Source: Vulcanimicrobiota bacterium
GTDB taxonomy: Bacteria; Vulcanimicrobiota; SpSt-956; JAKJGF01
DNA: 64,000 nt
Assembly (NCBI GenBank): GCA_040217695.1
Contig: JBEHWO010000002.1
Location: 8,538 to 72,537, forward strand
Direction of reading: 5' to 3'
This document shows positions 3,932 through 58,632 of the stretch, piece by piece. The notes beneath the pieces were generated by a model that did no database searches, was not told the origin of the DNA, and worked only from the letters and a program-made list of their open reading frames with translations. Every line of letters starts with the position of its first letter. Position 1 is the stretch's first letter. The position numbers were made by a program, and so were the translations under genes.

Positions 3932-4030
3932 TTACTGACCTAAGCATAAGCATGTAATAAAATTTTTTCCTCCCGTTACGCGTCACGCGTCACGAGAGCA
4001 GTTATGTATTATTTATGCTCACCTCAGTAA
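3932..4030. mobile_element. MITE-like repeat element, copy 1 (about 99 bp, TIR TTACTGAnnTGAGCATAA, CGTCACG heptamer core)
   Basis: ttactgacctaagcataagcatg..cctcccgttacgcgtcacgcgtcacgagagc..ttatgctcacctcagtaa. It is the reverse complement of the copies at 46312, 47238 and 56911. Confidence 0.7.
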
Positions 4031-4103
4031 TAAAACGATAGTGGGGAATTTTTTATCGGAGAATAATCAGGTAAACTATAATAAAATAAAGGAGATGCTC
4101 GTT

Positions 4104-6815
4104 ATGGCTCAAAAAACCCATGCAAATGAAGAAAAAAGACTTAAAGAAACAAAAGAAAAAAAGATACCATGGAAAAAATGGGGGCCCTATCTTTCAGATA
4201 GGCAGTGGGGTACTGTAAGGGAAGATTACAGCAGTGACGGAAATGCCTGGGATTATTTCCCCCATGATCAGTCCCGCTCCAGAGCATACAGATGGGGAGA
4301 AGACGGACTGGGAGGCATAAGTGATGAAAGACAGAACCTCTGTTTTGCCCTTGCCCTGTGGAACGGACAGGATGGGATAATCAAGGAAAGACTCTTCGGC
4401 CTCACAAACAGCGAGGGAAACCACGGAGAAGATGTAAAGGAATATTATTATTACCTTGACAGCACTCCAACCCATTCCTACATGAAATACCTCTATAAAT
4501 ATCCCCAGGATCCTTTCCCCTATGGACAGCTTATCAAAAAGAACAGGGAACTTACAAGACATGATTTCGAATATGAACTCATAAATACAGGAGTTTTCGA
4601 CAGAAACCGTTATTTTGATGCCTTTGTGGAATATGCCAAAAAAGACCCGGAGGAAATCTTAATAAAAATTACCATTCATAACAGAGGAGATATGGAGTGG
4701 ACTCTCCATGTAATGCCCACTCTATGGTTTCGGAATACATGGTCATGGTCTCAAGGTGCAGAGAGGCCGGAATTGAAAGAAGTAAAATCTTCTGTCATTA
4801 AGGCTTCCCACCCGGAACTTGGTGACAGGTACCTATACTGTGAAGGCTCTCCTGAACTTCTATTTACGGAAAATGAGACGAACATGGAGCGTATCTTCAA
4901 CAGAAAGAGCAGAACTCCCTATGTAAAAGACGGAATAAATAATTATGTAGTCTACGGAAAAAAAGAGGCAGTAAATCCGCAGAAAAGAGGGACAAAAGCA
5001 TCACCTTACTATGTCCTCAAAATAGCTCCCGGCAAGGCATCTGTCATAAGATTATGTCTCTCTGATAAAGGTCTTTCAGATTCTGGTAAAATATTTGAAA
5101 ATTTTGAAGATATAATGAAAACCCGTGTGGAAGAAACAGATGAATTTTATGAAACCATATCTCCTCCATCTCTTACGAAAGATGAAAAGAACGTAATGAG
5201 ACAGGCTCTTTCCGGAATGCTCTGGTCAAAACAGTTCTTCAATTTTGATCTTGATACATGGCTCAAAGAACATGGAGTGGATCCATTTAAGACCTTAAAA
5301 GCCTCGGGGGTAAGAAACAGCGAATGGCATCATATGATAAATGAAGATGTTGTATCCATGCCTGATAAATGGGAATATCCCTGGTATGCAGCATGGGATC
5401 TGGCCTTTCATACACTCGCCCTCGGCATGGTAGATATTGATTTTGCAAAAAGCCAGCTTGCTCTGATGCTGAAAGAAACCTATCTTCATCCCCATGGACA
5501 GATACCTGCCTATGAATGGAATTTCAGTGATGTAAATCCTCCGGTACATCCCTGGGCAACTATTTATCTCTACAGAATGGAAAAGGAACTTCATGGCAAA
5601 GCAGATATAAATTTCTTAAAACAGATGTTCACAAAACTTACATTAAACTTTTCCTGGTGGGTTAATAAAAAGGACAGAGGAGGAAGGAATATTTACGAAG
5701 GAGGCTTCCTGGGCCTTGATAATATAGGTATATTTGACAGGAGTTCTCCCCTTCCTACAGGAGGTTATCTTGAACAGGCAGATGCTACGGGATGGGTTGC
5801 CCTTTTTGCCCAGAATATGGTTGAAATAGGCCTTGAACTTGTCATGCATGATCCGACCTATGAAGATATGGTAATTAAATTTGTGGAACATCTTCTCTGG
5901 ATAGGCAATTCCATTTACAGACTCGGTGAACATTCGGAAGGCATGTGGGATGAAAAAGACGGATTTTTCTATGATGTATTGAGACTGCCTGACGGAAGCA
6001 GCCGCAGAATGAAGGTACGTTCTATGGTAGGACTTCTTCCTCTATGTGCCACAACTACAATATCTGCTGAAATGCTGGAGAAATTACCCCATCTTCTGGC
6101 CAGGGCAAAGAAGAGGGCTGAAAGATTACCGGAACTAAAGAAAGCCCTCACTTATATGGGGAAACCAGGTTTTAACGGAAACACTCTTCTGGCTCTTATT
6201 GATGAAGGGAAACTCAGGCGCATACTAAATAAATTACTCGATGAAAATGATTTTTTAAGCACATACGGCATAAGGGCTCTTTCCCGTTATCATCTTGAAC
6301 ATCCCTATGTCGTAAATATAAAGGGCCAGGAATTCCGTGTAGATTATGTTCCTGCAGAATCTGACACAGGCATGTTCGGAGGCAATTCAAACTGGAGGGG
6401 GCCCATATGGTTCCCCATGAATCTGCTCATTCTCAGGGGTCTCCTTATGTTCTACGGTTATTTCGGGAATGATTTTAAGGTAGAATGTCCCACAGGTTCA
6501 GGCATAAAAATGAATTTATTTGAAGTAACCCTGGAAATTGCCAGACGCCTTTCAAACATATTCCTGAAAGATGAACATGGTTTAAGGCCTGTTTACGGAG
6601 GGGCAGATAAATTCCAGAATGATCCCCATTTCCGTGATTATCTGTTATTTTATGAATATTTCCACGGAGACAATGGCGCAGGTATCGGTGCAAGCCATCA
6701 AACAGGCTGGACAGGACTTGTAGCAAGACTTATTCAGACTCTCGGCTTTGCCAATGCAGATAAATTACTCGGCGAGGGTGCTGCAAAAGGCGTAACTGCT
6801 TATAAAAAAAGTTAA
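4104..6815 (+). CDS. GH63-like (MGH1-type) glycoside hydrolase / glucosidase
   Basis: The long ORF is open from 4041. The ATG at 4104 sits 9 nt after AAGGAG. The N-terminal signature WGPYLSDRQWGTVREDYS..AWDYFPHDQSRSRAYRWGEDG..ERLFGLTN.EGNHGEDVKEYYYYLD and an (alpha/alpha)6-type C-terminus are recalled from this family. Confidence 0.75.
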   Translation: MAQKTHANEEKRLKETKEKKIPWKKWGPYLSDRQWGTVREDYSSDGNAWDYFPHDQSRSRAYRWGEDGLGGISDERQNLCFALALWNGQDGIIKERLFGLTNSEGNHGEDVKEYYYYLDSTPTHSYMKYLYKYPQDPFPYGQLIKKNRELTRHDFEYELINTGVFDRNRYFDAFVEYAKKDPEEILIKITIHNRGDMEWTLHVMPTLWFRNTWSWSQGAERPELKEVKSSVIKASHPELGDRYLYCEGSPELLFTENETNMERIFNRKSRTPYVKDGINNYVVYGKKEAVNPQKRGTKASPYYVLKIAPGKASVIRLCLSDKGLSDSGKIFENFEDIMKTRVEETDEFYETISPPSLTKDEKNVMRQALSGMLWSKQFFNFDLDTWLKEHGVDPFKTLKASGVRNSEWHHMINEDVVSMPDKWEYPWYAAWDLAFHTLALGMVDIDFAKSQLALMLKETYLHPHGQIPAYEWNFSDVNPPVHPWATIYLYRMEKELHGKADINFLKQMFTKLTLNFSWWVNKKDRGGRNIYEGGFLGLDNIGIFDRSSPLPTGGYLEQADATGWVALFAQNMVEIGLELVMHDPTYEDMVIKFVEHLLWIGNSIYRLGEHSEGMWDEKDGFFYDVLRLPDGSSRRMKVRSMVGLLPLCATTTISAEMLEKLPHLLARAKKRAERLPELKKALTYMGKPGFNGNTLLALIDEGKLRRILNKLLDENDFLSTYGIRALSRYHLEHPYVVNIKGQEFRVDYVPAESDTGMFGGNSNWRGPIWFPMNLLILRGLLMFYGYFGNDFKVECPTGSGIKMNLFEVTLEIARRLSNIFLKDEHGLRPVYGGADKFQNDPHFRDYLLFYEYFHGDNGAGIGASHQTGWTGLVARLIQTLGFANADKLLGEGAAKGVTAYKKS

Positions 6816-6838
6816 ATAAAATTAAGGAGGTTTTTATT

Positions 6839-9280: not shown

Positions 9281-10471
9281 GTGAAGGTGTTCTGTTATTT
9301 GATTAAAAAAAGTTTATTAATATTATTAATATTATTTCTTCTGGCTGCATGTGATGTATCTCCTGCTTTTTCTTACATAGAAAAACACGTAAATAAAAGA
9401 GACAAAATTTTCGAACCTCTTACCGATGAAACTCTTACCAATGAAAACCAGGATAATTCTTCATCTATCTGTTCTGATGATAATACTCAGTTAAGTCCGG
9501 ATAATTACGATTTTAACGAAAAAAAATTAGGAAATATAAATCTGGAAAGATATAATTACAGGACATCCTTATCAGTCACAGATTATGATAACAAAAACAG
9601 TATTACTGCTGATAATTCCAGAGAAGAAAAAGTTCCTGACAGGGAAAAGAAAGAAGAGCCAGATACGGTAGAAAAAGCTCCTGTTTCCGGGGAAGAGAAA
9701 AAAGAGGATCCAAATACAGCAGAGAAAGCTCCTGTTTCCGAAGAAGAAAAAAAGGAAGAGCCAAATACAGGAGAAAACCCTGCAAAGCCAAAAACCAGAT
9801 TTGAATTGAGATTTAAATATCAAAATCTTTCCAATGATAGAGATGCTTTAGCCCTCACCTTTCGCGCCGATAAAGTTATAGATCTTGATAATCGCTGGGC
9901 TCTTGCACTCAGATTTGATTTCCCCCTTTTACTCAATGATGTTTCTCCCGTAAGTGCAGGCCCTGCAGAAAACTACAAATTCGGCTCAAGTGATCTAGTT
10001 GCTCAAATACTTTTTATTCCTCCGAGGAATAGAAATTTTGATATTTTCTTCGGCGTGCAGCACATACTTCCCGTGGGAAGTGATGATCAGTTCGGCAGAG
10101 GGAAATATATTATTGCCCCTGTATTTGGAGTGGTAGATGTGCCTTCATCTTTACCGGGAGGAAGTTTTTCCGGATTTCTTCTGAGAAATGAAATCAGTTA
10201 TGCAGGGAATGAAGATAGACGGGATGTAAATGAACTTGTCATTCAGCCCTTTTTAAATGTAATGCTTCCTGACAGATGGTTTATATATATGTCACCTCAC
10301 ATGAGAATAAACTGGGCACAGAATAACAGTTTCTTCCTTCCCATTGATCTTACCGTAGGAAAAGTTGTGGGTAAAAATAAGTCTATCTCTGTAAAAGCAA
10401 GTGTGGGAGTTATAAAAGATTATAACTTTTATGACTATGAACTGGAATTTACGACAGCCATATATTTTTAA
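9281..10471 (+). CDS. Exported (lipobox LLAAC) protein with an acidic repeat linker and a C-terminal beta-barrel-like domain
   Basis: GTG start. Leader LLILLILFLLAAC. Three copies of EKKEEPxTxEKAPVS. The beta-rich C-terminus ends in an aromatic residue (..FTTAIYF). Confidence 0.7.
   Translation: MKVFCYLIKKSLLILLILFLLAACDVSPAFSYIEKHVNKRDKIFEPLTDETLTNENQDNSSSICSDDNTQLSPDNYDFNEKKLGNINLERYNYRTSLSVTDYDNKNSITADNSREEKVPDREKKEEPDTVEKAPVSGEEKKEDPNTAEKAPVSEEEKKEEPNTGENPAKPKTRFELRFKYQNLSNDRDALALTFRADKVIDLDNRWALALRFDFPLLLNDVSPVSAGPAENYKFGSSDLVAQILFIPPRNRNFDIFFGVQHILPVGSDDQFGRGKYIIAPVFGVVDVPSSLPGGSFSGFLLRNEISYAGNEDRRDVNELVIQPFLNVMLPDRWFIYMSPHMRINWAQNNSFFLPIDLTVGKVVGKNKSISVKASVGVIKDYNFYDYELEFTTAIYF
9643..9779 (+). 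repeat. In-frame 51-bp tandem repeat (about 2.7 copies) inside the 9281-10471 CDS
   Basis: Units at 9643-9693, 9694-9744 and 9745-9779 encode EKKEEPDTVEKAPVSGE / EKKEDPNTAEKAPVSEE / EKKEEPNTGENP. Confidence 0.85.
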
Positions 10472-10477: not shown

Positions 10478-10495
10478 CGTGATGCGTGATGCGTA
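10478..10495. repeat. Heptamer array (CGTGATG x2.5), a variant of the GTGACGC family
   Basis: cgtgatgcgtgatgcgta, 7 nt after the stop of the upstream gene. Confidence 0.8.
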
Positions 10496-10554: not shown

Positions 10555-10971
10555 ATGGCAGAAAAAGAACAAAAATCGGCAAATGATTTAGCAGTTGACC
10601 GTACTGACCTTGCAGTTGAGAGAACTATTATGGCGGCAAACAGGAGCCTGATGGCCTGGGTACGCACAGGCCTGTCCCTTATAAGTTTTGGTTTTACCAT
10701 ATACAAATTCCTTCAGGCTGAAATAAAGATCTCAGGGACTTCCCTGATAACAGCCCATGGCCCCCGTCGTTTCGGCCTTATGCTTATAGCTCTCGGCACA
10801 GCATCTGCCATAGCAGGTGCACTGGAGTATTTCGGCACAGTAAAGAGATTGAACAGGCTTTTTAATATGAAATTCAGCCCTGTAAATGTTTCTTTTATTG
10901 TGGGACTTGTAGTAACCCTTATAGGATTATTCCTCTTTATTACTATTTTGACTCATACAGAAGTGTTTTAA
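10555..10971 (+). CDS. DUF202 (YidH-like) membrane protein
   Basis: An RBS (GGAAAGGAG) is present. LAVDRTDLAVERTIMAANRSLMAWVRTGLSLISFGFTI followed by 2 further TM segments. Confidence 0.75.
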   Translation: MAEKEQKSANDLAVDRTDLAVERTIMAANRSLMAWVRTGLSLISFGFTIYKFLQAEIKISGTSLITAHGPRRFGLMLIALGTASAIAGALEYFGTVKRLNRLFNMKFSPVNVSFIVGLVVTLIGLFLFITILTHTEVF

Positions 10972-13251: not shown

Positions 13252-13394
13252 TAAAATAAGTTGTTCTGCAATTACGCAGGTTAAATAAACAGTTCTTCCC
13301 GGCAGACAAACGATCTGCCATGGAACTCTGTTGTATAAAATAAACTATGGGTTTCATCTAATTCTCAATGAAACCCGCAGAAAGGAAGAAAACA

Positions 13395-14870
13395 ATGAAA
13401 AAAGCAAGCACACAAAACCCGACACCTGGCTACAACTACAGGATCCCCGAGCAGATAATGACTCCCGATACTGTGGAGACACGGATCGGCACACTCAAGT
13501 TCTTCGATGGTTTTCCAACTGAGGAGACGACTCAGAAAGTCTATGACCACCTGGATTTCATCAGGGGTGTCGAGGTGTTCCTCAACTTCATTCCGGCGAC
13601 TTCCATCGAAGCGATGCGCCGGGGCAACCTGGAACTGGGCGCCATTACGGCTAACCAGGTTCTCATCATGGACGAATTGTGCGATTCGTCTCCACTGTTT
13701 CTCACGGCTAACACCGATACAGTTTACGTTTCAGGCTTTATAGACCTGGGGAAAGACGGCCCCACGGTCGTGGAGATTCCGCCTGGATGCGGACCTGGCA
13801 CAGTGAACGATGCCTTTTTCCGCTTTGTCATTGATATGGGCGGACCGGGACCAGACAGGGGGAAAGGCGGTAAATATCTAATCTTGCCTTCTGATTACAG
13901 TGGCGAGGAGCCAGAGGGCTATTTCGTGTCCCGCTCACCCTCCTATGTGAACTGGTTGATTCTGCGCGGCTTCCTGGTGGATGGCAAACCAGATACAGCC
14001 AACAAAAACTTCAGGGACGGCCTGAAAGTATATCCCCTCTCCCAGAGGAATAATCCGCCGGCCATGCAGTTCATCAGCGCATCGAAGCTGTCCTACAACA
14101 CGATTCACGCAAACACCTACGAGTTCTATGAGGAGCTGGCTCACTTACTGGCCAGGGAGCCGGTAGACTTCATTGACCCGGAACTGCGCGGCCTCGCAGC
14201 CAGCATCGGCATCCGTAAAGACAGACCCTTTGCCCCTGATGCACGAATGAAGGCCATCCTGACCGAAGCCGTCTCTGTAGGTAATGCCACTGCAAGGGCC
14301 ATCTGCTTTGAAACCCGCGACAGAGAGGCCTATTACTACAAGAACAGCGCATGGAAGATGGCATTCGTCGGCGGAGATTACCGGTGGTTGATTGATGGCG
14401 GAACTGGCGGCAGGAATCTGGATGCCCGCACACTCTTCTTCTATGCAGCCACAGTGAATACTCCCGCCATGGCGATGAAAATGGTCGGTCTGGGCTCCCA
14501 GTATGCCTATGCAGAACATGACAGAGACGGAAACTTCCTGGACGGGGGGAAGAACTACAGACTGAATATCCCGGGTAACGTGCCTGCCAGAGACTTCTGG
14601 TCAGTAGTTGTTTACGATCCGCAGACCCGCTCCGAACTTCAGACATCCCAGCCATTTCCCAGCAAGAACAGCAAGAGGGATCCACTGGCCGTGAATGATG
14701 ACGGATCAGTGGATCTCTATTTCGGCCCTACTGCTCCGGCCGGCAAAGAAAAGAACTGGACTGAGACTGTTCCCGGCAAAGGCTGGTTCCCCATACTGCG
14801 TCTCTACGGCCCGCTGGAACCATGGTTTGACCAGACCTGGAAGCCGGGAGAGTTCGAACAGTTGAAGTGA
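13395..14870 (+). CDS. DUF1254/DUF1214 domain protein
   Basis: GC-rich ORF. The ATG at 13395 follows AAAGGAAG. The 13368 ATG lies inside a leader hairpin (13349-13376). The two-domain architecture is recalled from this family (..FLTANTDTVY.. / ..RTLFFYAATVNTPAMA..FWSVVVYD). Confidence 0.75.
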   Translation: MKKASTQNPTPGYNYRIPEQIMTPDTVETRIGTLKFFDGFPTEETTQKVYDHLDFIRGVEVFLNFIPATSIEAMRRGNLELGAITANQVLIMDELCDSSPLFLTANTDTVYVSGFIDLGKDGPTVVEIPPGCGPGTVNDAFFRFVIDMGGPGPDRGKGGKYLILPSDYSGEEPEGYFVSRSPSYVNWLILRGFLVDGKPDTANKNFRDGLKVYPLSQRNNPPAMQFISASKLSYNTIHANTYEFYEELAHLLAREPVDFIDPELRGLAASIGIRKDRPFAPDARMKAILTEAVSVGNATARAICFETRDREAYYYKNSAWKMAFVGGDYRWLIDGGTGGRNLDARTLFFYAATVNTPAMAMKMVGLGSQYAYAEHDRDGNFLDGGKNYRLNIPGNVPARDFWSVVVYDPQTRSELQTSQPFPSKNSKRDPLAVNDDGSVDLYFGPTAPAGKEKNWTETVPGKGWFPILRLYGPLEPWFDQTWKPGEFEQLK

Positions 14871-15026
14871 ATAAACCAATCAATGAGAGAAAGGACAGAA
14901 CAATAAAAAAAAGAAACAAACAAAACTTCCCCGCCGCCGCGTCCGATGGCACTCAGACCGAACAGATCGGCTGGTTGGGAAGACATAAAGAACAGGAGTA
15001 ATCTAAATAAAGAGAGGAGAAATATT

Positions 15027-17390
15027 ATGTCAATCAAGACCTATAAAGATGGAACCCCTTTTACCGGCGTCATTGGACGCACTACCGAAGAGTCCTCTCC
15101 GGCATGGCCGGAACCTCAGCGCCCCCGGGAGGGTGCACCAAACGTGCTCTTCTTCGTGCTGGACGATGTGGGATACGGACAGTTATCGAGCTTCGGAGGG
15201 CTGGTGGAAACGCCGGTGATGGACAGCCTTGCCGCAAACGGCCTGCGCTACACCAACATGCACACCACTGCCCTGTGTTCGCCGTCGCGCGGCTGCATCA
15301 TTACAGGGCGCAATCACCACTCCCTCGGGCTGGCATCGATCACCGAGCTATCCACCGGATACCCGGGCTACAACGGTATCCTGCCTTTTGACAAGGGCAT
15401 GCTCAGCGAGATACTGCTGCCGCAGGGCTACAATACTTTCTGTATCGGGAAGTGGCATCTGACTCCCCCTGAACACGAAACAGCGGCAGGTCCCTACGAC
15501 AGATGGCCCCTTGGCCGCGGGTTCGAGCGTTACTACGGATTCCTGGGGGGCGACACCAACCAGTGGTATCCGGAACTGGTCTATGACAACCACGGAATCG
15601 AGCAGCCCAGGACGCCGGAGGAGGGTTATCACCTGAGCATCGATCTGGCTGATAAGGCTATCGAGTTCATCCAGGATGCCCACGTCAATGCGCCGGAAAA
15701 GCCTTTCTTCCTGTATTACGCCACTGGCGCAGGCCACGCGCCGCACCATGTGCCCAGGGAATGGGCAGACAGGTACAAAGGCAAATTCGATATGGGCTGG
15801 GACGAGTACCGCAAAATCGTCCACCAGCGCCAGCTCAAGATGGGCATCATACCCCCGGGTACCGAACTGTCGCCCCATGACCCTGACGTGCCGGTCTGGG
15901 ATACCCTTCCGGCCCACGCCAGACAGCTCTATGCCAGGATGATGGAGGTCTATGCGGGCTTTATTACCTTTACAGATCATCATTTTGGACGGATTCTTGA
16001 GTTCCTGAAAGAGATCGGCGAACTGGACAATACTCTGATTATGGTTATATCAGACAATGGCGCCAGCTCCGAGGGCGGAGTCGTGGGCTCTCTCAACGAG
16101 ATGTGCTTTTTCAACAACCTGAAGGAGTCCCTCGAGGACAATCTCAAGCAGATAGATAAGCTGGGCGGTGTGGAAGTTTTCAACCATTACGCCTGGGGCT
16201 GGACCAATGCCGGCAACACGCCGTTCCGCCGCTGGAAGCGCGAGACCTACAGGGGCGGCTGCACAGACCCCTGCATCGTGTCCTGGCCGAAGGGTATCAA
16301 GGCCCGCGGCGAGATACGGGCACATTACGCCCATGCCATTGACCTGGTACCCACGGTTTTAGAAGCCCTGGGTATGGAGGCACCGGAGAGCATCCGCGGA
16401 GTGACCCAGGCGCCCATAGATGGTGTGAGTTTCGCCCACACCTTTGACAATGCTGCTGCACCCGGCAATCACCACACACAGTATTTCGAAATGTTCGGTC
16501 ACAGATCGATCTACCATGACGGCTGGAGGGCGGTCTGTCCGTGGCCTGGCCCGAACTTTACCGAGGCCGCAAAGAAGGGCCGCCAGTTCGGCTCCCCCAT
16601 TACAAACGAGGTGCTGATGGATATCGAGGCTCATGACTGGGAACTGTACCACATTGATAAGGACTACTCCGAATGTCATAACCTGGCTGCCGAGAACCAT
16701 GAAAAGGTAATTGAAATGGTGGGCCGCTGGTGGGCTGAAGCCGGTAAGTACCAGGTGCTGCCCATCGATGGCAGTTCCTTACCACGGATGAACGTGGAAC
16801 GCCCGACTATAGCCAGACCGAGAAACAAGTTTGTCTATTACCCGGGCGGGTCGTCGATTCCATTTTCCGCCGCACCAAAATCCTACAACCGGCCCTGGAG
16901 CATCACGGCCGATGTCGTGATTCCGAAGGGCGGCGCAGAAGGGGTTCTGCTGGCCCATGGCGGACGTACCGGCGGTTACACCATGTTTATCAAGAACCAC
17001 CGTCTCTACTTCCTGTACAACTTCCTGGCCCGTGACAGATTCTGGCTCAAGTCAAACGAGATTGTTCCCGAAGGCGAAGTCGAACTGCGTTACGAGTTCG
17101 AGCCAACTGGCAAGCCAGACGTGGCCAATGGGAAAGGAGTGCCGGCCCGGGGCCAGCTTTACATCAACCGCAGGCTGGTTGCCAGCATCGATATGCCCCA
17201 TTCGGTACTGAACATGTACGGGACTGAGGGTCTTTCCTGCGGCTATGACGGCGGATCTCCCATAGCACCGGAAGAATACACAGATGAGTTCCGATTCACC
17301 GGGACCATCAAGCGTGTCACAGTGGATCTGTCCGGTGAGCTCATCCCGGATAGTGAAGCCGACCTGAAGATCGCCATGGCGCGGCAGTAA
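15027..17390 (+). CDS. Cys-type arylsulfatase (formylglycine-dependent)
   Basis: The RBS AGAGGAG lies 8 nt upstream. VLFFVLDDVGYGQLSSFGG..TALCSPSRGCIITG (the C-x-P-x-R FGly motif)..GKWHL..ISDNGAS. Confidence 0.9.
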   Translation: MSIKTYKDGTPFTGVIGRTTEESSPAWPEPQRPREGAPNVLFFVLDDVGYGQLSSFGGLVETPVMDSLAANGLRYTNMHTTALCSPSRGCIITGRNHHSLGLASITELSTGYPGYNGILPFDKGMLSEILLPQGYNTFCIGKWHLTPPEHETAAGPYDRWPLGRGFERYYGFLGGDTNQWYPELVYDNHGIEQPRTPEEGYHLSIDLADKAIEFIQDAHVNAPEKPFFLYYATGAGHAPHHVPREWADRYKGKFDMGWDEYRKIVHQRQLKMGIIPPGTELSPHDPDVPVWDTLPAHARQLYARMMEVYAGFITFTDHHFGRILEFLKEIGELDNTLIMVISDNGASSEGGVVGSLNEMCFFNNLKESLEDNLKQIDKLGGVEVFNHYAWGWTNAGNTPFRRWKRETYRGGCTDPCIVSWPKGIKARGEIRAHYAHAIDLVPTVLEALGMEAPESIRGVTQAPIDGVSFAHTFDNAAAPGNHHTQYFEMFGHRSIYHDGWRAVCPWPGPNFTEAAKKGRQFGSPITNEVLMDIEAHDWELYHIDKDYSECHNLAAENHEKVIEMVGRWWAEAGKYQVLPIDGSSLPRMNVERPTIARPRNKFVYYPGGSSIPFSAAPKSYNRPWSITADVVIPKGGAEGVLLAHGGRTGGYTMFIKNHRLYFLYNFLARDRFWLKSNEIVPEGEVELRYEFEPTGKPDVANGKGVPARGQLYINRRLVASIDMPHSVLNMYGTEGLSCGYDGGSPIAPEEYTDEFRFTGTIKRVTVDLSGELIPDSEADLKIAMARQ

Positions 17391-21179: not shown

Positions 21180-21255
21180 ATGGCAGTAATATGGACATTG
21201 GATGCGGCAACGGAGGGGGCCGTTGACTTTACCTGCGAGGAGAAGGGAGTTGTCT

Positions 21256-26159: not shown

Positions 26160-26185
26160 AAAAAATTTCCCCCCTATCTGACGGG

Positions 26186-41376: not shown

Positions 41377-41384
41377 GTTAGAAT

Positions 41385-41417
41385 CGTGACGCGTGACGCG
41401 TGACGCGTGACGCGTGA
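41385..41417. repeat. Heptamer array CGTGACG x4.7, 8 nt upstream of the PfkB start codon
   Basis: gaatc gtgacgc gtgacgc gtgacgc gtgacgc gtgaaat. Confidence 0.9.
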
Positions 41418-41440
41418 AATACTCCGTTTATAGTAGAAAA

Positions 41441-41488
41441 ATGGCGAACACGGCAATAATCTCTACTCACCATTCACTGTTCACCGGT
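41441..41488. repeat. GTGAGTA-family heptamer element, related to 50601-50640
   Basis: The reverse complement reads ccggtgaacagtgaatggtgagtagagattattgccg; compare gccggtgaacagtgagtagaggattaccgc at 50611-50640. Confidence 0.6.
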
Positions 41489-41532
41489 AAATAAACATGA
41501 AAGAAACTGATGGTTCGCATCATGTTATATAG

Positions 41533-43293: not shown

Positions 43294-43794
43294 CTATATT
43301 CTTTCTATAAATCCTTCACAGCATTTACCGGGGTTAAAGCCAGTCAAAGTATGATTACATGCTATATTTGCCGTTATCCCTGCAACACCGGCAAAACATC
43401 CGATACGGGGACAGGTCAATTCACTGATGACATTGCCTCTGTCCAGTATATCCTGACAGCATGGAAGGTAGACACAGTTAAATACAGATACCTCGAGTTT
43501 ATTGGGATTTACCTCTCTTAATACAAATTGCCTGGTATCTTCAAAAAGTCCGCTCTTAAGCCCCAGCTCTATATAAGCTTCCACTGCTTCTTTTATTGTA
43601 CCGGCCGGTTTCATATGATAACCATATTCATTGCATATGATATCAATCAAATTACCGGCTGCATTTTCATATACTCTCCTGCAGAATTCCCCCGGATGAG
43701 GGAAAAAATCCCTGGCACTTTCCTCTATGGCTGTAACCCAGATTCTTACAAGTTCTCTTTGAGTTCTTCCATGTTTATATTTGGGATCTATCAT
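43294..43794 (-). CDS. V4R-like small-molecule-binding domain protein
   Basis: 166 aa. Conserved Cys pattern ..VFNCVYLPCCQDIL..LTCPRIGCFAGVAG. Directly abuts both neighbouring genes. Confidence 0.55.
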   Translation of the reverse strand: MIDPKYKHGRTQRELVRIWVTAIEESARDFFPHPGEFCRRVYENAAGNLIDIICNEYGYHMKPAGTIKEAVEAYIELGLKSGLFEDTRQFVLREVNPNKLEVSVFNCVYLPCCQDILDRGNVISELTCPRIGCFAGVAGITANIACNHTLTGFNPGKCCEGFIERI

Positions 43795-43795
43795 G

Positions 43796-44992: not shown

Positions 44993-45003
44993 CTTCTTTT
45001 AAT

Positions 45004-45059
45004 TAGCTATTAGCTATCAGTCGGGCTATCAAGCTGTTTAAAGCTGACGGCTGAAGTGC
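45004..45059. repeat. TAGCTAT x2 with a degenerate period-7 tail (AGCTATCAG family)
   Basis: tagctat tagctat cagtcgg gctatca agctgtt.. Confidence 0.55.
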
Positions 45060-45139
45060 TGAATTATTTTTCGACAAATAATTTAAAAGCCCTTTTAAAG
45101 AGTCCAGAGTTTAATGTTTTCTCTAATTTATATTAGAAT

Positions 45140-45167
45140 CGTAACGCGTAACGCGTTACGCGTGACG
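45140..45167. repeat. Heptamer array CGTAACG/CGTTACG/CGTGACG x4
   Basis: gaatc gtaacgc gtaacgc gttacgc gtgacgg. Confidence 0.9.
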
Positions 45168-45202: not shown

Positions 45203-46273
45203 TTATTGCAATTCCCATTCGATGGTATAATTTTCCTGCCATATATTCTTCAGATGCAGTTCTATCTTATCAGTAGATATCTTCGGGAAATAAATATAAC
45301 CGTCTGCTTTTTGCCCCTGTGATATAGTACTATCAAAAATGCTGTCACATCTTATCATATCATGTCTGTTTCCGTCTCCGTCTATCATATAGGCATTATC
45401 TTTGAAAGGAGTAATATTCATATCCGAATGACTTGCATTATCAATGATTACCTGGAATACGATGTTTGTAGAGATACCTCTGTTTTTTATCTCCTGTTGC
45501 ATAAGTTTTGTTTTCATATCATTATTAATATCTGTTCTCTGAGAAAGACGGTAAGTAGAATAAACTCTGAACAGTTCCTGATCCCACATTATAACTGTAA
45601 TTTTTGATACGGGAGGGGTAACAGGTTTACCGTAATCCGGCTGGCCGTAATTATAATTATTATAATCACTGTAATCGAGCCTGTCTGAAGACATTCTCGT
45701 AGCTGTAGTAGCCATATATAAAGGGTCGCCGTACATTATGGCCAGGCCGAGATTGGCAAGATTATACTGCCAGTCATCATCTTCTGAAGTATTGTTTTCT
45801 TTTTTACTTCCTGTTTCTATCTTTATAGCCCTGGTTCTCATGGCAAGCACACTGTAATAATCGTCTACAGGATTACTTGAAGGACTGTATTTTATATTAA
45901 CAGGCTGTGAAGTAATTTCATCGGGAACAGGAGATTTTTCGCCGACTGAAACAGGAGGATTATCAGTGCTGACTGAAGAAAAATCTTTTGTGACAGTATC
46001 TCCAAGGTCAGCTATGGAAGAAGACAGTTTTTCAGTTATCCTTACATTACATGAATTCTCACCGAGAACAGCAATAACTTTTCCTTTTGCAATGGGTTTT
46101 TGCAGTCTTAAAATAAGGAGAGTATCGTCTGTCTGAATATTATCATTGCTTCCAAGACTTACTATAATCTCATCCTGTGATACAACCTTCACAACCATGC
46201 CAACCCTTCCGTAAGCCAGAAAAACAGTTGATAACACCATTACCAGTGTTAGAAAAACAATTTTAAATTTCAT
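45203..46273 (-). CDS. Exported protein of unknown function
   Basis: The ATG at 46273 lies 9 nt after GGAGGTG. Signal peptide MKFKIVFLTLVMVLSTVFLAYG. The C-terminal beta-sandwich-like region is unassigned. Confidence 0.65.
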   Translation of the reverse strand: MKFKIVFLTLVMVLSTVFLAYGRVGMVVKVVSQDEIIVSLGSNDNIQTDDTLLILRLQKPIAKGKVIAVLGENSCNVRITEKLSSSIADLGDTVTKDFSSVSTDNPPVSVGEKSPVPDEITSQPVNIKYSPSSNPVDDYYSVLAMRTRAIKIETGSKKENNTSEDDDWQYNLANLGLAIMYGDPLYMATTATRMSSDRLDYSDYNNYNYGQPDYGKPVTPPVSKITVIMWDQELFRVYSTYRLSQRTDINNDMKTKLMQQEIKNRGISTNIVFQVIIDNASHSDMNITPFKDNAYMIDGDGNRHDMIRCDSIFDSTISQGQKADGYIYFPKISTDKIELHLKNIWQENYTIEWELQ

Positions 46274-46311
46274 TTGAATAAACACCTCCGGACATGAGTG
46301 ATTATAATATA

Positions 46312-46408
46312 TTACTGAGGTGAGCATAAATAATAAATATATGCTCTCGTAAAGCGTAATGCGTGACGGGAGGAAAACTTTTATTACATGGTTATGCTCA
46401 GGTCAGTA
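46312..46408. mobile_element. MITE-like repeat element, copy 2
   Basis: ttactgaggtgagcataaat..ctcgtaaagcgtaatgcgtgacgggagg..ttattacatggttatgctcaggtcagta. Confidence 0.7.
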
Positions 46409-46451: not shown

Positions 46452-46472
46452 CGTGACGCGTCACGCGTGACG
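46452..46472. repeat. Palindromic heptamer array CGTGACG-CGTCACG-CGTGACG
   Basis: cgtgacgcgtcacgcgtgacg followed by ggag. Confidence 0.85.
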
Positions 46473-46618
46473 GGAGAGCTTATTTTTTGTATAATGATAG
46501 TTATAAAAAAATCACATATATTTACATTTTATTCTAAATAAAATATAATGTAATCTATAGCTGGTTTCATTAAATACTCAACCCGGTAATTAATCTTTTA
46601 TTTAAGTTAAAACCTTCG

Positions 46619-46646
46619 CGTCACGCGTTACGCGTCACGCGTCACG
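46619..46646. repeat. Heptamer array CGTCACG x4, 10 nt upstream of the 46657 start
   Basis: cgtcacg cgttacg cgtcacg cgtcacg attc. Confidence 0.9.
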
Positions 46647-47237: not shown

Positions 47238-47325
47238 TAGTGTGGTGAGCATAAATAATACATATCTGGTCCCGTTACGCGTGACGGTAGGAAGACTTTT
47301 ATGATATGCTTATGGTCATGTCGGC
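47238..47325. mobile_element. MITE-like repeat element, copy 3 (degenerate ends)
   Basis: gtggtgagcataaataatacatatctggtcccgttacgcgtgacggtaggaagacttttatgatatgcttatggtcatgtc. Confidence 0.55.
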
Positions 47326-47371
47326 AGTTTATAGCTGACATTGCTCAATGGTAATAAACAAAGAGGAAGTT

Positions 47372-49342
47372 ATGTCAGTAACCTGTATAAAGTGTAAAAC
47401 AAGTAATAGGGAAAAAGCAAAATTTTGTTCTAAATGCGGAAATCTTATGGTTCAGACACAGAACCCTGAGAAAAAGAACAGTGAAAAAATTCTCGGCAAC
47501 AGATACAGAATAGAAAAATTAATAAAAAGCGGCGGCATGGGAGCCATATACAGAGGGAAACATATAAAACTTGACGAAACCTTTGCCATAAAAGAAATGA
47601 TATTTACCTCTACAGATGAAAAACAAAATCAATATGCTATGAAACGCTTTTATGAAGAGGCAAAACTCCTATCCAGATTAAGACATCCGAACCTTCCCGT
47701 AGTAACGGATTATTTTGATGAAGATAATAAATATTACATAGTAATGGATTTTGTAGAAGGAGAAGATCTGGGAGAAATATTAAAAAAATACGGTTCTCCG
47801 GGCCTTCCGGAAAAACATGTAACGTTCTGGACAGAAGAAATATTAAAAGTCCTGGATTATCTTCATTCACAGAACCCGCCTGTTATATACAGAGATATAA
47901 AACCTTCAAATGTAATGATAAGAAGAAGTGATAAAAAAGTCATGCTTGTAGATTTTGGCATAGCCAGAACTGTTCAGGGTAATGTTTATTCGGGACAGAC
48001 TGCCATAGGAACATTCGGCTATGCACCTCTGGAACAGTACAGAGGCTCTGTGGAACCAAGAAGTGATATATATGCCCTTGGAGCTACAATGCACTGTCTT
48101 CTCACAGGTGTGGAACCTGTATCATGTGACTTCAGGCCTGTAAGAGAAATAGTGCCGTCACTGTCGGAAGAAATAGAGAAAATAATAGCAAAATCTGTCA
48201 TGGAAAAACCGGAAGACAGATATTCTTCTGCAAAAGATATGTTAAAGGCCATGAATTTTTCACAGGAAGGATACAGGCAACATTTACGTAAAAACCTTCC
48301 CCCTCAACCGGTGGAAAGAAAAAAAATAATATGTGATTTAAGGACAAGAACATTTTTAAAAGAGCAAATAAGAGATGAAAAAAATATAAATGCCATAAAA
48401 AATATTATAAACAACTGGGGTAATAAAGAAAGCTGGTTTTCAAGGGATCTCGGAAAAAAAATAGACATCACGCAAATAGTAAGGGAAAATGGTTTTATAA
48501 TTTCTATTGAAGTGCTCTTTCTGGAAAGACTCCTGGAAGAAGGGATGGAGCCATGCAGTGGTGAGACACAGAAAAGTCCGGTTTTTAATGAACCGTCTTA
48601 TAAATCTCTGGAAGATTTCCCTGTAACGGGCCCTCCGGCAAATTTCACGACAAAACTGGATGAACATTATATTTTCCCTGATTCAAAGGAAGTAGTAAGG
48701 TGTCCGAAATGCGGAGGCGACGGTGATATTACCTGTAAAGACTGCAGGGGAAAAGGGATAACAACAAAAACAAAAAAGATAAACAGTAATTCTCCTCCTT
48801 CAACGGAATCTGCAAAATGTAAATATTGCAGGGGCACAGGTGAGTCTACATGTGATCTGTGTAATGGCTATAAAGAAATTATAAAATATCTCTATTTCAG
48901 CACAAAATATTATCCCATGTATTTTTCGGAAATACTCTACAGGGGAAGACTAGATAAAGGTTTGTTCCAGGAAAGTGATAAATTTCTTATATATGAAGAA
49001 GAAATCTTTGACAGACAGAAGGGCAAATCCTTTGATGACATAAAACTTAAGCCCCTTCACAACTCTTTATTTGATGAGTCCTTACATGCCCTTATGGATG
49101 AAATAAGCTCCCATCATAAAGATGAGAAAAAAATGCTTAAAATACCTCTTAAAATGAAACTTTCCATAGAAGAAATGGTAATAAGGGAAGTGCAGTTTAA
49201 AGATAAAAAGAAAAACAATACCCTCTGGTTATACGGAACGGAAACGGAAAAAGACAGATTGACAATAGAAAACCGTCCCCTTCTATGGTCTGCCGAAGAT
49301 GTAATAGACGGCGTGAGAAACATGCTTACAGGACGCAGATAA
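47372..49342 (+). CDS. Ser/Thr protein kinase with an N-terminal zinc ribbon and a C-terminal domain holding DnaJ-type CxxCxGxG fingers
   Basis: CIKCKTSN..CSKCGN. Hanks motifs GGMGAIY..AIK..YRDIKPSN..DFG..GT.GYAPLE. CPKCGGDGDITCKDCRGKG..CKYCRGTGESTCDLCNG at 48701-48878. Confidence 0.85.
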   Translation: MSVTCIKCKTSNREKAKFCSKCGNLMVQTQNPEKKNSEKILGNRYRIEKLIKSGGMGAIYRGKHIKLDETFAIKEMIFTSTDEKQNQYAMKRFYEEAKLLSRLRHPNLPVVTDYFDEDNKYYIVMDFVEGEDLGEILKKYGSPGLPEKHVTFWTEEILKVLDYLHSQNPPVIYRDIKPSNVMIRRSDKKVMLVDFGIARTVQGNVYSGQTAIGTFGYAPLEQYRGSVEPRSDIYALGATMHCLLTGVEPVSCDFRPVREIVPSLSEEIEKIIAKSVMEKPEDRYSSAKDMLKAMNFSQEGYRQHLRKNLPPQPVERKKIICDLRTRTFLKEQIRDEKNINAIKNIINNWGNKESWFSRDLGKKIDITQIVRENGFIISIEVLFLERLLEEGMEPCSGETQKSPVFNEPSYKSLEDFPVTGPPANFTTKLDEHYIFPDSKEVVRCPKCGGDGDITCKDCRGKGITTKTKKINSNSPPSTESAKCKYCRGTGESTCDLCNGYKEIIKYLYFSTKYYPMYFSEILYRGRLDKGLFQESDKFLIYEEEIFDRQKGKSFDDIKLKPLHNSLFDESLHALMDEISSHHKDEKKMLKIPLKMKLSIEEMVIREVQFKDKKKNNTLWLYGTETEKDRLTIENRPLLWSAEDVIDGVRNMLTGRR

Positions 49343-49347: not shown

Positions 49348-49370
49348 CGTGACGCGTGACGCGTGACGCG
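49348..49370. repeat. Heptamer array CGTGACG x3.3
   Basis: gaatc gtgacgc gtgacgc gtgacgc gagga, 5 nt after the kinase stop. Confidence 0.9.
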
Positions 49371-50142: not shown

Positions 50143-50170
50143 CGTCACGCGTCACGCGTTACGCGTCACG
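50143..50170. repeat. Heptamer array CGTCACG x4
   Basis: ccc gtcacgc gtcacgc gttacgc gtcacg aattt. Confidence 0.9.
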
Positions 50171-50600: not shown

Positions 50601-50672
50601 GTGAGTAGCAGCCGGTGAACAGTGAGTAGAGGATTACCGCTATTCACTATTCACTATTCACTATTCACTATT
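50601..50672. repeat. Two abutting heptamer arrays: GTGAGTA-type (degenerate) and CACTATT x5
   Basis: gtgagta gcagccg gtgaaca gtgagta ga.. then cgctatt cactatt cactatt cactatt cactatt. Confidence 0.85.
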
Positions 50673-52114: not shown

Positions 52115-52199
52115 AGTGAGAAGTGAGAAGTGAGAGGTGAGATGAAAGAGTAGAGAATTATGACTTCTCACTTTTCACTTTTCACTTTTCACTTTATTC
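52115..52199. repeat. Inverted pair of heptamer arrays: (AGTGAGA)x4 ... (TTTTCAC/TCTCACT)x4, forming an imperfect long hairpin
   Basis: agtgaga agtgaga agtgaga ggtgaga tgaaaga gtagaga ..attatgac.. ttctcac ttttcac ttttcac ttttcac. Confidence 0.85.
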
Positions 52200-53432: not shown

Positions 53433-53462
53433 CGTGACGCGTAACGCGTGACGCGTGACGCG
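53433..53462. repeat. Heptamer array CGTGACG/CGTAACG x4, 12 nt upstream of the permease start
   Basis: cgtgacg cgtaacg cgtgacg cgtgacg cgagga. Confidence 0.9.
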
Positions 53463-53491
53463 AGGATTTTATAGATTATACGTGTTTTACG

Positions 53492-53525
53492 CATACAGGG
53501 GTACGGCGCACCGTACCCCTGTATG
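53492..53525 (-). terminator. Perfect 15-bp GC-rich hairpin downstream of the Tes-like gene
   Basis: catacaggggtacgg / cgca / ccgtacccctgtatg. Confidence 0.6.
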
Positions 53526-56051: not shown

Positions 56052-56075
56052 CAGGAATCTCTTCAGTATAAGAAT

Positions 56076-56910: not shown

Positions 56911-57000
56911 TTACTGTGGTGAGCATAAAATATATGCTCCCGTGACGCGTAACGCGTGACGGGAGGAAAAATTTTATTACATGCTTATGCTCAGGTCAGA
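56911..57000. mobile_element. MITE-like repeat element, copy 4
   Basis: ttactgtggtgagcataaaatatatgctcccgtgacgcgtaacgcgtgacgggaggaaaaattttattacatgcttatgctcaggtcag. Confidence 0.7.
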
Positions 57001-57195: not shown

Positions 57196-58548
57196 ATGAA
57201 CAAAAAAATTATATTATTACTATCGATTTTCATATTTTTGCTTACCCCGTATATTAAAGCATCGGAAAAATCTCTAACACTGGAAGAATGTATAAACTTT
57301 GCCCTGGAGAATAATTCTTCCATAGAGGTGGCACAGAAACAGATAGATGTAACCGGTGCAAACATAAAAGAGATTAATGCAGGAAAATATCCCAGAATAT
57401 ATGTATTGGGTTCTGCAAGAAAGTGTGAGTATCAGACAGGTTATATGGATTTCAGCCTGTCACCTCCAAACCCGGACTTAACGGACGGCAAACAGATATA
57501 TTTAAACAGTGATAATTTCGATGCATCTATGGCAGTAGAAATAAGTCAGACTGTATATGACGGAGGAGACATACACATTAAATTAATCGCTGCACAGCTT
57601 GAAAAAGAAAATGCAGAAATCAACATGGAATCGGTAAAGGAAGATGTATCATATAAAGTAAAATTGGCTTTTTATTCTGCTCTTAAATCAAAAGACCAGT
57701 TCCGTCTATCAGAAGAAAATGTAAAAACCGGTGAAGAGCATTTAAAACTTGCAAAAGCACTCTTTGATGCCGGTCTTGTGCCGCAGGTAGATATGGTAAC
57801 AGCAGAAGTGGCCCTTACAAAAGCCTCCATGCTTTTTTCTCAGGCTCAGAACGAATATAATAAATCCGTTAATAATCTCAATACTGCAATGGGAAGAGAA
57901 CTGGAAGATACCGTTGATATTTACGGCGACAGCTCATACATTCTTTTACATATAGATGAAAAATCTGTGATGGAAAGAGCACTTACGGGCAGATGTGAAA
58001 TAAGACAGCTTAACCTGGCCCTCTCCAACCAGCAGGACAGTGTAAGTAATATTGAAGCCCTTATAAAACCTACAATAAATGCAAATGCAGGTTATATAGT
58101 AAGAAACAACAATTCTATCGGAAGAAAAGGGTTTTATTTCGAAGTTGGTTTAAATTTACCTATATTCAATGTAGCAGACAGGGCAGAACTTGAGAAAATC
58201 CGGGCTAAAACAGCAGAAGCGGAAAAACAGAAAGAACTGCTGGTATCAACTGTAAAACTTGAAGTAAAAAATGCCCTGCTTGATGTAAAAAGTGCGGAAA
58301 GCTGTATAGAAATAGCAGAAAAAGAAGTGGAACTGGCATTGCTTCACCTGCAGATTTCCGAAGGAAAATATAAACAGGGCGCAGGAACTATAATGGAAGT
58401 AACAAATTCACAGTTAAATCTTATGAAATCAAAAACCGATTATATCAATGCAATCTATAATTATAAAATAGCTCTGGCAACTGTCGAGCATGTAGCCAAT
58501 ATTAAGCTAGAAGACGTCCGGCAAAAAAATGATTTAACAGATAAATAA
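57196..58548 (+). CDS. TolC-family outer-membrane efflux protein
   Basis: Signal peptide. SLTLEECINFALENN. Two OEP repeats with coiled-coil heptads. Confidence 0.85.
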   Translation: MNKKIILLLSIFIFLLTPYIKASEKSLTLEECINFALENNSSIEVAQKQIDVTGANIKEINAGKYPRIYVLGSARKCEYQTGYMDFSLSPPNPDLTDGKQIYLNSDNFDASMAVEISQTVYDGGDIHIKLIAAQLEKENAEINMESVKEDVSYKVKLAFYSALKSKDQFRLSEENVKTGEEHLKLAKALFDAGLVPQVDMVTAEVALTKASMLFSQAQNEYNKSVNNLNTAMGRELEDTVDIYGDSSYILLHIDEKSVMERALTGRCEIRQLNLALSNQQDSVSNIEALIKPTINANAGYIVRNNNSIGRKGFYFEVGLNLPIFNVADRAELEKIRAKTAEAEKQKELLVSTVKLEVKNALLDVKSAESCIEIAEKEVELALLHLQISEGKYKQGAGTIMEVTNSQLNLMKSKTDYINAIYNYKIALATVEHVANIKLEDVRQKNDLTDK

Positions 58549-58604
58549 CTGAGTACCGAGATCTGTCATTCCCGCTTTCAAAGACCAGCGGTACAAGGGC
58601 CTCG

Positions 58605-58632
58605 CGTCACGCGTCACGCGTCACGCGTCACG
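58605..58632. repeat. Heptamer array CGTCACG x4, 24 nt upstream of the HlyD-family start
   Basis: cctcg cgtcacg cgtcacg cgtcacg cgtcacg attc. Confidence 0.9.

Follow-up and report, generated by a model that had tools for sequence, protein, structure and literature searches.

Tandem CGT-N-ACG heptamer arrays at gene boundaries in a Vulcanimicrobiota genome: a candidate transcribed hairpin module

What do short tandem heptamers do when they recur at one gene boundary after another? The question is raised by a stretch of 64,000 nucleotides from Vulcanimicrobiota bacterium (assembly GCA_040217695.1, contig JBEHWO010000002.1, positions 8,538 to 72,537; hereafter the window), in which 13 intergenic sites carry arrays of the unit CGTNACG. 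Our preferred answer, to which we give slightly less than an even chance, is that the arrays form a transcribed hairpin module that bounds leaders, spacers and trailers, is seeded in part by miniature inverted-repeat transposable elements (MITEs) and is filtered by translation signals.

A preliminary description of the window had listed 13 tandem arrays with conserved flanks (GAATC on one side, CGAGG(A) or GGGAGG on the other), none of them in a credible coding sequence, and these claims held. CGTNACG arrays of 1.3-4.7 units are present at all 13 sites; the two-unit pattern CGTGACGCGTGACG, with at most one mismatch, has 27 matches in the window, every one at these sites, and none in 100 dinucleotide-preserving shuffles (chance expectation, none). 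The arrays were recovered by Tandem Repeats Finder (period 7, 2.4-4.7 copies) and by a simple period-run scan, and each lies outside open reading frames (ORFs) of 80-90 aa or more. Two sites need qualification: 46359-46367 has one intact unit, preceded by two degenerate ones (CGTAAAG CGTAATG CGTGACG) within a MITE, and 10478-10495 is indeed a tandem heptamer, of the variant unit CGTGATG. Every ACGCGT (28 of 28) and every CGTGACG or CGTCACG heptamer (30 of 30) in the window falls within an array, with no singletons. The flanks follow the consensus (A)GAAT-[array]-(C/G)GAGGA in the CGTGACG reading and ttCCTCG-[array]-AtT on the opposite, CGTCACG strand. Since the unit is a palindrome about a free central base, CGT-N-ACG, the 'orientation' of an array is carried by that one base. 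An assembly artefact, which had been considered, can be dismissed because orthologous arrays are present in independent NCBI, ENA, JGI and Logan assemblies. No rRNA, tRNA or Rfam family was detected in the whole window at gathering thresholds, nor at E <= 1 over 45.0-47.5 kb.

The arrays occupy particular positions relative to genes. Across the window and related low-GC loci, 93 of 95 CGTNACG arrays lie outside ORFs of at least 90 aa, and they stand 8-24 nt before start codons or about 5 nt after stops. Arrays most often end 21-23 nt before the start codon where a GGAGG-type Shine-Dalgarno (SD) sequence lies between; the others leave 8-14 nt, filled by an A/U-rich spacer alone. Strand is biased as well. 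For 36 arrays a start codon lies no more than 50 nt away, and the mRNA-sense strand is CGUCACG in 28 of them, CGUGACG in 4 and mixed in the other 4 (binomial p = 2e-5). Arrays no more than 10 nt past a stop mostly present the strand with TGA in all three frames. Arrays of other heptamers, introduced below, behave alike: all 44 lie outside ORFs, the GTGA strand follows the stop in 23 of 26, many of these providing the stop codon themselves, and the TCAC strand precedes the start in 7 of 9. In short, the GTGA strand is directed away from whichever gene end is nearest. Probable promoters lie upstream of arrays (TTGACA-16-TATAAT in locus L051; TATAAT 9 nt before CCTCG at window position 53433), as do terminator hairpins for several arrays, which places those arrays in leaders. 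The earlier suggestion of 'transcript punctuation' fits this placement at transcript and ORF boundaries with strand polarity. Two promoter-related roles were rejected, the first of them as a general role. The array could serve as a -35 box in GTGACG-17-TATAAT at 46467-46495, a configuration kept in relative L108, but no other array fits; and the array region is not a -10 box or the start of a leaderless mRNA, since an SD or an A/U-rich spacer follows it.

Strand polarity also bears on a role in double-stranded DNA, in which clusters of ACGCGT (MluI-type) or GTNAC would serve restriction-modification or methylation, a nucleoid protein, or a recombinase or HUH enzyme that acts on extruded hairpins, much as RAYTs (REP-associated tyrosine transposases) recognise REP elements. 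Such a role would suit the confinement of ACGCGT to arrays, the conserved palindromic arms, the DNA hairpins of -6 to -16 kcal/mol predicted for 3-5 units and the long inverted repeats of arrays in Bacteroidota. A symmetric duplex site, however, predicts no strong gene-relative strand polarity, and dimers seated on each ACGCGT, 7 bp apart, would be expected to clash sterically. Outside arrays, ACGCGT occurs 0 times in the window against 0.3 expected, which gives no sign of avoidance, the expectation being too low to judge it. A Pfam scan that covered 30 window ORFs (the others, including those at 23.8-40 kb, lay outside it) returned no transposase, whether of the Y1 (RAYT) type or another, and no restriction-modification gene. 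We regard a duplex-DNA role as very unlikely.

The individual sites can be read against syntenic relatives, with nucleotide identities of ~90% (L101-103 and L108-112), ~84-86% (L113-115) and ~76% (L104-107). The window, of 38% G+C, comes from an uncultivated bacterium. Its acetate kinase shares 96% identity with that of 'Vulcanimicrobiota bacterium CTOTU7676' (DAIOEN01) and 88% with one that bears the name Candidatus Eremiobacteraeota, and nearly all homologues of its Ser/Thr kinase are labelled Eremiobacterota. Orthologous array sites were found upstream of pfkB, at 46452, upstream of the BsuPI-domain gene, in the VTT spacer, upstream of MacB and upstream of ackA. Before pfkB (-), the 4.7-unit array at 41385-41417 (+ strand) reads CGUCACG in the gene sense, leaving 8 nt without an SD up to the ATG at 41376; L113 has the orthologous array. 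The MacB/FtsX gene (-) likewise has CGUCACG in its own sense, in the 4.3-unit array at 53433-53462 (+), which stops 12 nt short of the ATG at 53420; a terminator hairpin and the TATAAT lie upstream, and L113 again has the orthologue. The BsuPI-domain gene has four units that read CGUCACG in its sense at 46619-46646 (-), 10 nt ahead of its GTG at 46657. An HlyD-family gene has four of the same kind at 58605-58632 (-), 24 nt ahead of the GTG at 58657 with AAGGGGG between and 56 nt past the OEP stop codon. Two co-directional VTT-domain genes (-) are separated by a 4-unit array at 50143-50170 (-), which lies 3 nt past one stop; beyond it come an SD-like GGTGGAAAGG and then an ATG about 19 nt off.

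Past stop codons, the 3.3-unit array at 49348-49370 (+) lies 5 nt after the Ser/Thr kinase gene (47348-49342) with the TGA-bearing strand in the kinase sense, and the variant array CGTGATG CGTGATG CGTA at 10478-10495 (+) lies 6 nt after ORF 9281-10471 and 59 nt before ORF 10555-10971. The array at 45140-45167 (+; centres A, A, T, G), which has an orthologue in L101, stands 35 nt beyond the stop codon that ends ORF 45203-46327 (-) and precedes ackA by ~150 nt. The array at 46452-46472 is mixed (centres G, C, G), with a perfect palindrome in its first 14 nt and TATAAT 17 nt downstream; orthologues are present in L108 (degenerate, 4 units) and L113.

Two of these sites adjoin features of their own. 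Between the HEAT-repeat gene and pfkB, a 125-aa response-regulator gene present in three related species (L101:3846-4223, L113:4028-4408) is missing from the window, where a 156-bp heptamer-rich spacer (41377-41537) is left. The 41385 array was considered as the cause of this deletion and rejected, because its orthologue in L113 coexists with that gene. Downstream of the radical-SAM/HMPTM gene, 53480-53512 forms a perfect GC-rich hairpin, ACAGGGGTACGGCGCACCGTACCCCTGT, and the motif apparently occurs twice in the same spacer of L113.

Could the arrays fold? RNA folding gives -13.9 kcal/mol for (CGUGACG)4, -9.9 for (CGUCACG)4, about -8 to -10 for three units and ~0 for two, with 5-6-bp ACGCGU helices separated by centre-centre mismatches. 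In these models a stable fold needs three or more units, which matches the observed mode of four (62 of 114 arrays). In native leaders the array is predicted as a discrete hairpin, and fold prediction also bore out the earlier proposal that arrays of mixed orientation form perfect hairpins. Symmetry of the central bases themselves, which could point to selection for perfect hairpins, is limited to anecdotal cases (GATC, ACCT, ACCCT), among which the MITE copies are not independent. The CCUCG flank is nearly universal, and GGAGG follows 5-11 nt after the array in about 20% of arrays.

From these features we infer the following mechanism. The arrays would be transcribed within 5' leaders, intercistronic spacers and 3' trailers, where 3-5 units would fold in vivo into a stable hairpin of 6-bp ACGCGU helices with unpaired central bases between them. 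Located 8-24 nt ahead of the start codon, on the outer margin of the ribosome-binding region, or immediately beyond the stop, the hairpin may form a structural boundary, capping or insulating the adjacent ORF at its mRNA end, and could thereby stabilise it; a CCUC(G/C) flank facing GGAGG could in addition pair with the SD. Translation would filter the choice of strand, favouring the stop- and start-free CGUYACG strand in leaders and, after stops, the strand with TGA or TAA in all three frames, which is also predicted to be the stronger hairpin. New copies would arise partly by hitch-hiking in TA-targeting MITEs, and unit number would shift slowly by slippage.

Comparison between species distinguishes the arms from the centre of the unit. 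When orthologous arrays from three species are compared, 10 of 204 arm positions (4.9%) are changed, against 18 of 34 central bases (53%; Fisher p = 3e-11); four-fold degenerate sites of neighbouring genes differ by 28-41% between the window and L108 or L113. Over all arrays, mismatches amount to ~2% in the arms, and the centre is A or T in 31% of units. As judged from these alignments, the putatively paired arm positions are more conserved than silent codon positions, a direct sign of purifying selection. Changes at the centre are mostly transitions, which keep the purine or pyrimidine class and with it the presence or absence of stop codons. We consider the hairpin module the most economical reading because it would account for conserved arms with a free centre, the need for at least three units to fold, the position of the arrays and their strand correlations.

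Copy number was also compared within and between species, as the preliminary description had raised slippage-prone contingency loci as one possibility and had suggested a check for heterogeneity in populations. On such a reading, rapid changes in unit number would switch neighbouring genes. Unit number does differ between species: the 49348 array has 3 units in the window, 2 in L108 and none in L113, the 47273 array has 2 against 3 in L108, and MITE copies come in lengths of 85, 92 and 99 bp. Within species no variation was found. Contigs from 5, 3 and 3 independent samples of three species carry identical arrays, and a flank-anchored metagenome scan for length variants returned one contig with one allele, a thin sampling. 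The tracts are short (2-5 units, mode 4) and lie neither in coding sequence nor between -35 and -10 boxes, and four units are kept in all three species upstream of the BsuPI-domain gene and, with differing central bases, in the VTT spacer, despite silent-site divergence of ~30-40%. The contingency-locus idea is therefore not supported, and we hold it to be extremely improbable.

How have the arrays spread? Four of the 13 are central in MITE-B, an element of 85-99 bp with terminal inverted repeats (TIRs) of 15-17 bp, CTGA(GG/CC)TGAGCATAA, TA on both sides and no ORF, whose sizes rise in 7-bp steps, 85, 92 and 99 bp corresponding to 2, 3 and 4 units. The window copies measure 85-93 bp. The 93-bp copy at 3935-4027 encloses a 3-unit array at 3974-3994 (- strand; CGTTACG CGTCACG CGTCACG in the + strand reading), and that at 46315-46406 the degenerate array 46355-46368. 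A MITE-B-like copy at 47240-47324 has two units at 47273-47286, and the copy at 56914-56999 three at 56941-56961; the latter is predicted to fold as RNA at -35 kcal/mol (z = -5.2), with CUCC/GGAG flanks that extend the array hairpin. Insertions are polymorphic: the 46315 copy is absent in L108 and L113, leaving a visible empty site, and the 47240 copy is present in L108 and missing entirely in L113. Two further dispersed families also carry the array centrally, class C (~120 bp, with ends of the GGACTGT...GAAAATAA type) and class D (TATGAGAAT-N10-[array]-ATTCTCATA). The flank ATTCT(C/A/T)ATATAA of the arrays at 45140 (ATTCTAATATAAAT on the other strand) and 58605 matches class D, and that of the 49348 array matches the left half of the class-C element. 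Nine window arrays lie outside MITE-B. No parent transposon, sought as a TIR pair of 0.3-4 kb enclosing a gene, was found in the loci examined.

CGTNACG is not the only heptamer in this lineage. In a census of 317 kb, comprising the window and non-redundant low-GC loci of the clade that were partly picked for CGTGACG arrays, perfect tandem runs of at least 2.5 units numbered 100 for period 7, 3 for period 5, 5 for period 6 and 0 for periods 8-11; the 44 period-7 arrays of other units alone exceed all other periods combined. GTGA is contained in 79 of the 100 period-7 arrays and in 36 of these 44, in units such as AGTGAAA, AGTGAAG, GGTGAAG, CAGTGAG, CGTGAGT, GGTGATG and AGTGACC. This dominance of period 7 and the shared GTGA make CGTGACG (GTGA-CGC) the commonest member of a family rather than a separate system, and CGT-N-ACG arrays are the commonest, GC-rich and palindromic subfamily of clade-wide GTGA-N3 heptamers. 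The suggestion of a genome-wide repeat system akin to the heptamers of cyanobacteria and large sulfur bacteria was thus borne out, with 13 sets in 64 kb, and extends across the lineage.

Other heptamers in the window include CTCAACC at 39257, AGTTGAT at 39220 and ATTAGCT at 45002. (CTATTCA)4.7 at 50640-50672 (-), read as (AGTGAAT)n in the gene sense, begins right at the stop of a radical-SAM gene, and one spacer, 52115-52195 (-), holds both AGTGAGA x4 (52115-52142) and ACTTTTC x4.7 (52163-52195), which in the gene sense place GAAAAGT after the MacB stop and TCTCACT 17 nt before the radical-SAM start. Different heptamers may occupy one spacer in different species: where the window has (CTATTCA)n at 50640, L113 has (AGTGAAA)5.4 and (ACTGGTC)4.6. 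The ackA leader is full of degenerate AGCTGAT/AGCTAAT-type heptamers that reach the SD (window 44995-45110, L101:183-366, L108:3230-3330), and their position is kept in four species.

Beyond the clade, a scan of one genome per species for three perfect units returned at least 100 loci. Among the matches listed, many contigs belong to single metagenome-assembled genomes (MAGs): those of Vulcanimicrobiota (DAIOEN01, JBEHWP01), a 37%-GC MAG labelled Synergistia (CAYSLJ01), several Bacteroidota, Nitrospira, Planctomycetota and Longimicrobiales. Array-rich assemblies include GCA_036746235.1, GCA_029555925.1, CAYSLJ01 and JBEHWP01, and the genus of the window occurs in anaerobic-digester samples (for example JGI 3300010365, 3300032800 and 3300038679, and ENA ERZ724078). 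In Bacteroidota, arrays alternate with GA-rich spacers (CGGGGGAAT, GAAGGGG), some followed by reverse-complement arrays that yield long hairpins, and the GAAT and CG(R)RGG flanks recur. Polarity recurs as well: in loci of at least 0.41 G+C and seven IMG/VR contigs, 15 ATG-started ORFs of at least 100 aa start no more than 40 nt downstream of an array in the CGTCACG reading and 3 downstream of one in the CGTGACG reading; an IMG/VR example of the former is [array]-GGAGGTAAAA-ATG. Phages were considered as vectors and rejected, a 3-unit array being present in only 7 of 2.9 million IMG/VR contigs.

Several of these genomes show features of their own. The MAG 'uncultured Synergistia bacterium SRP239243_co1_332' (CAYSLJ01; loci L002, L028, L034, L041, L044, L050, L051, L061, L062, L065 and L089) has 35-39% G+C and MITE families B, C and D in common with the window, and its Synergistia label is probably wrong. 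In higher-GC Bacteroidota MAGs (L049, L077, L095, L098), CGTCACG arrays, often of exactly 3 units (21 nt, which keeps the frame), lie inside very long ORFs on the stop-free strand. They may be true coding repeats, or the ORF finder may have read through non-coding DNA. L059 (Bacteroidota MAG JAPLDG01, reverse strand) has long composite hairpins at 230-330, 1530-1640 and 2060-2230, made of two-CGTGACG blocks split by GA-rich 5-7-mers and then 5-7 contiguous CGTCACG/TGTCACG units, and one of them directly follows a terminator-like stem with a T-run.

The census and the MITEs raise the possibility that the arrays have no function in the host and are by-products of heptamer-biased slippage together with selfish array-carrying MITEs, their position and polarity reflecting where insertions are tolerated (no stops in ORFs, no upstream GUG or upstream ORFs in leaders). 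Period 7 dominates tandem repeats whatever the unit; four window arrays sit in polymorphic TA-flanked MITEs with 2, 3 or 4 units, and at least two more carrier families exist; arrays are gained and lost between species; and a relative of ~76% identity has no CGTNACG array in 21 kb. Against this, the arms evolve 6-8 times more slowly than four-fold sites and the centre at least as fast, whereas slippage would homogenise the centre too. The constancy of four units in three species at two sites, the tight spacing to start codons and the recurrence of heptamer, flank and polarity in distant phyla also weigh against it. We consider an absence of function somewhat unlikely.

The shared GTGA suggests another alternative, in which the arrays are phased binding sites for an oligomeric, sequence-specific nucleic-acid-binding protein that reads a GUGA (or UCAC) core in each 7-nt register as part of a global post-transcriptional or polar transcriptional network, with CGTNACG as one allele of the site. 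Ring-shaped regulators offer a precedent: HutP reads UAG-N4 repeats, a 7-nt register, and TRAP reads GAG/UAG triplets. The arrays resemble such sites in having a short core at a fixed register, a free spacer and a small, fixed repeat number; they differ in that the core base is poorly conserved in CGTNACG and that both strands are used, depending on the gene end. No HutP- or TRAP-like protein was found for the arrays, and we know of no such ring-shaped regulator acting on them. The strict 7-nt phase with a shared tetranucleotide and a variable 3-nt spacer, the narrow copy number, the gene-relative polarity and the substitution of one heptamer for another in the same spacer all speak for phased binding, and the same idea was put forward for TAACTGA repeats (MacGregor 2015, PMC4679880). 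Yet the base that completes GTGA is the least conserved in CGTNACG, a single RNA-binding protein cannot recognise both the GUGA that follows stops and the UCAC that precedes starts, no candidate for such a protein emerged, and the spread over phyla would need a shared or transferred factor. Phased binding is in our judgement unlikely. A bolder version is quite unlikely: GTGA-N3 arrays would be the cis sites of a polar 'punctuation' system shared horizontally among Eremiobacterota, Bacteroidota, Nitrospirota, Planctomycetota and others, in which the boundaries of transcripts or of translation would be set when an oligomeric protein, or else the ribosome or RNA polymerase itself, reads 3-5 phased cores on whichever strand is directed away from the closest gene. 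Cyanobacterial short tandemly repeated repetitive sequences (STRR) and TAACTGA would then be variants of the same mechanism.

Several points weigh against the hairpin module itself. Non-palindromic GTGA-N3 arrays, which share its positions and polarity, are left unexplained by a hairpin. Conservation of the arms could reflect recognition by a protein or a transposase-type enzyme, there being no compensatory arm changes to discriminate, and since intact units were what identified an array as orthologous, the arm divergence is biased towards low values. Some orthologous sites have no array or another heptamer, which makes any single array dispensable. The CCUCG flank pairs with the SD in only ~7 of 22 minimum-energy leader folds, which makes SD sequestration possible but not general, and transcription start sites were placed by -10-like hexamers only.

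How do the arrays relate to known repeats? The record of heptamer tandem repeats goes back to 1990 for cyanobacteria and to 2015 for giant sulfur bacteria. The closest described system is the TAACTGA heptamers of marine Beggiatoaceae, which have a 7-nt unit in 2-6 tandem copies and form many intergenic sets per genome, a few nt from start codons and often without an SD; they are patchily distributed across phyla, including Bacteroidetes, and translational control has been proposed (MacGregor 2015, PMC4679880). In the BOGUAY genome there are 819 TAACTGA singletons, and the TGA-containing 'forward' strand faces the start codon (PMC4679880). The array sequence CGTNACG is absent from that paper (PMC4679880). 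The two systems are alike in unit length, copy number, intergenic position by start codons and patchy spread across phyla. They differ in that CGTNACG is palindromic and GC-rich, TAACTGA non-palindromic; CGTNACG has no singletons in the window; its polarity is opposite, the stop-free strand facing the start; and its host phylum is Eremiobacterota.

In cyanobacteria, STRR heptanucleotides were reportedly described by Mazel et al. in 1990. Contiguous heptamers also lie upstream of Nostoc recF and recO (bioRxiv 10.1101/2022.06.06.494920). The resemblance to our arrays lies in several families per genome, intergenic placement near starts or promoters and a suspected regulatory role, whereas the cyanobacterial and Nostoc units (CCCCAGT, TTGGTCA, CAACAGT, TTTTGAA, GACYAAT) are different and not palindromic. 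To our knowledge, neither a shared GTGA core nor carriage by MITEs has been reported for cyanobacterial heptamers. The CGTNACG unit differs from STRR1-3 and from TAACTGA and shares the other STRR-type traits (7-nt unit, dispersal, start-codon polarity). In the literature searched, the array sequence appears only as a primer, and no link between Eremiobacterota and tandem repeats was found. CGTNACG arrays are akin to the heptamers known from giant sulfur bacteria and cyanobacteria and have not been described before.

By analogy, the dispersed intergenic hairpin comes closest to the repetitive extragenic palindromic (REP) sequences and bacterial interspersed mosaic elements (BIMEs) of enterobacteria and pseudomonads, imperfect palindromes of 20-40 nt with lineage-specific sequence in 3' untranslated regions and intercistronic spacers, where they are transcribed as hairpins that stabilise or punctuate mRNA. 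The arrays are similarly dispersed and intergenic, and the hairpins predicted for 3-4 units have energies of -8 to -14 kcal/mol. A conserved 5' GTAG and an association with RAYT transposases mark the REPs, which are not tandem heptamers and do not typically lie just 5' of ribosome-binding sites, and the array flanks are CCTCG and ATT, not of GTAG type. For the carrier, the closest analogues are the Correia elements of Neisseria and the IS630/Tc1-type MITEs, small bacterial elements with TA duplication. MITE-B is like them in size (85-99 bp), TIRs, TA flanks, insertion polymorphism, proximity to genes and capacity to form a hairpin, and unlike them in its internal cargo, a heptamer array of varying unit number.

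What is new here is a further phylum and a palindromic unit for heptamer repeats; a GTGA core common to the heptamers of a clade; a strand rule for starts and stops that other phyla obey too; a sign that purifying selection acts on the putative pairing positions, which diverge by 5% where silent sites diverge by 28-41%; and TA-flanked MITEs as a vehicle of spread. The question of heptamer function can now be reduced to concrete tests with hairpin mutants, inversion and altered unit number. If the arrays are boundary hairpins, they would be compact natural insulator parts for leaders and operon spacers.

Other observations concern the window at large. Synteny with the ~90%-identical contig DAIOEN010000228 (L101) is split into at least four blocks, among them window 1-3713, 24587-26164 and 40470-45113, which are contiguous within 11 kb in L101 and tens of kb apart in the window. 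A 4-kb stretch at 13368-17390, with a DUF1254/DUF1214 protein and an 814-aa sulfatase, has 54-55% G+C against 38% for the genome and looks like a recent horizontal acquisition. Longer tandem repeats also occur within ORFs: an A/G-rich 51-bp repeat in 2.6 copies (17 aa per copy) at 9644-9777 in ORF 9281-10471, which has no Pfam match, and a perfect 24-bp repeat in 2.3 copies at 22207-22262 in ORF 21202-22590, which encodes Big_2 and CarboxypepD_reg domains.

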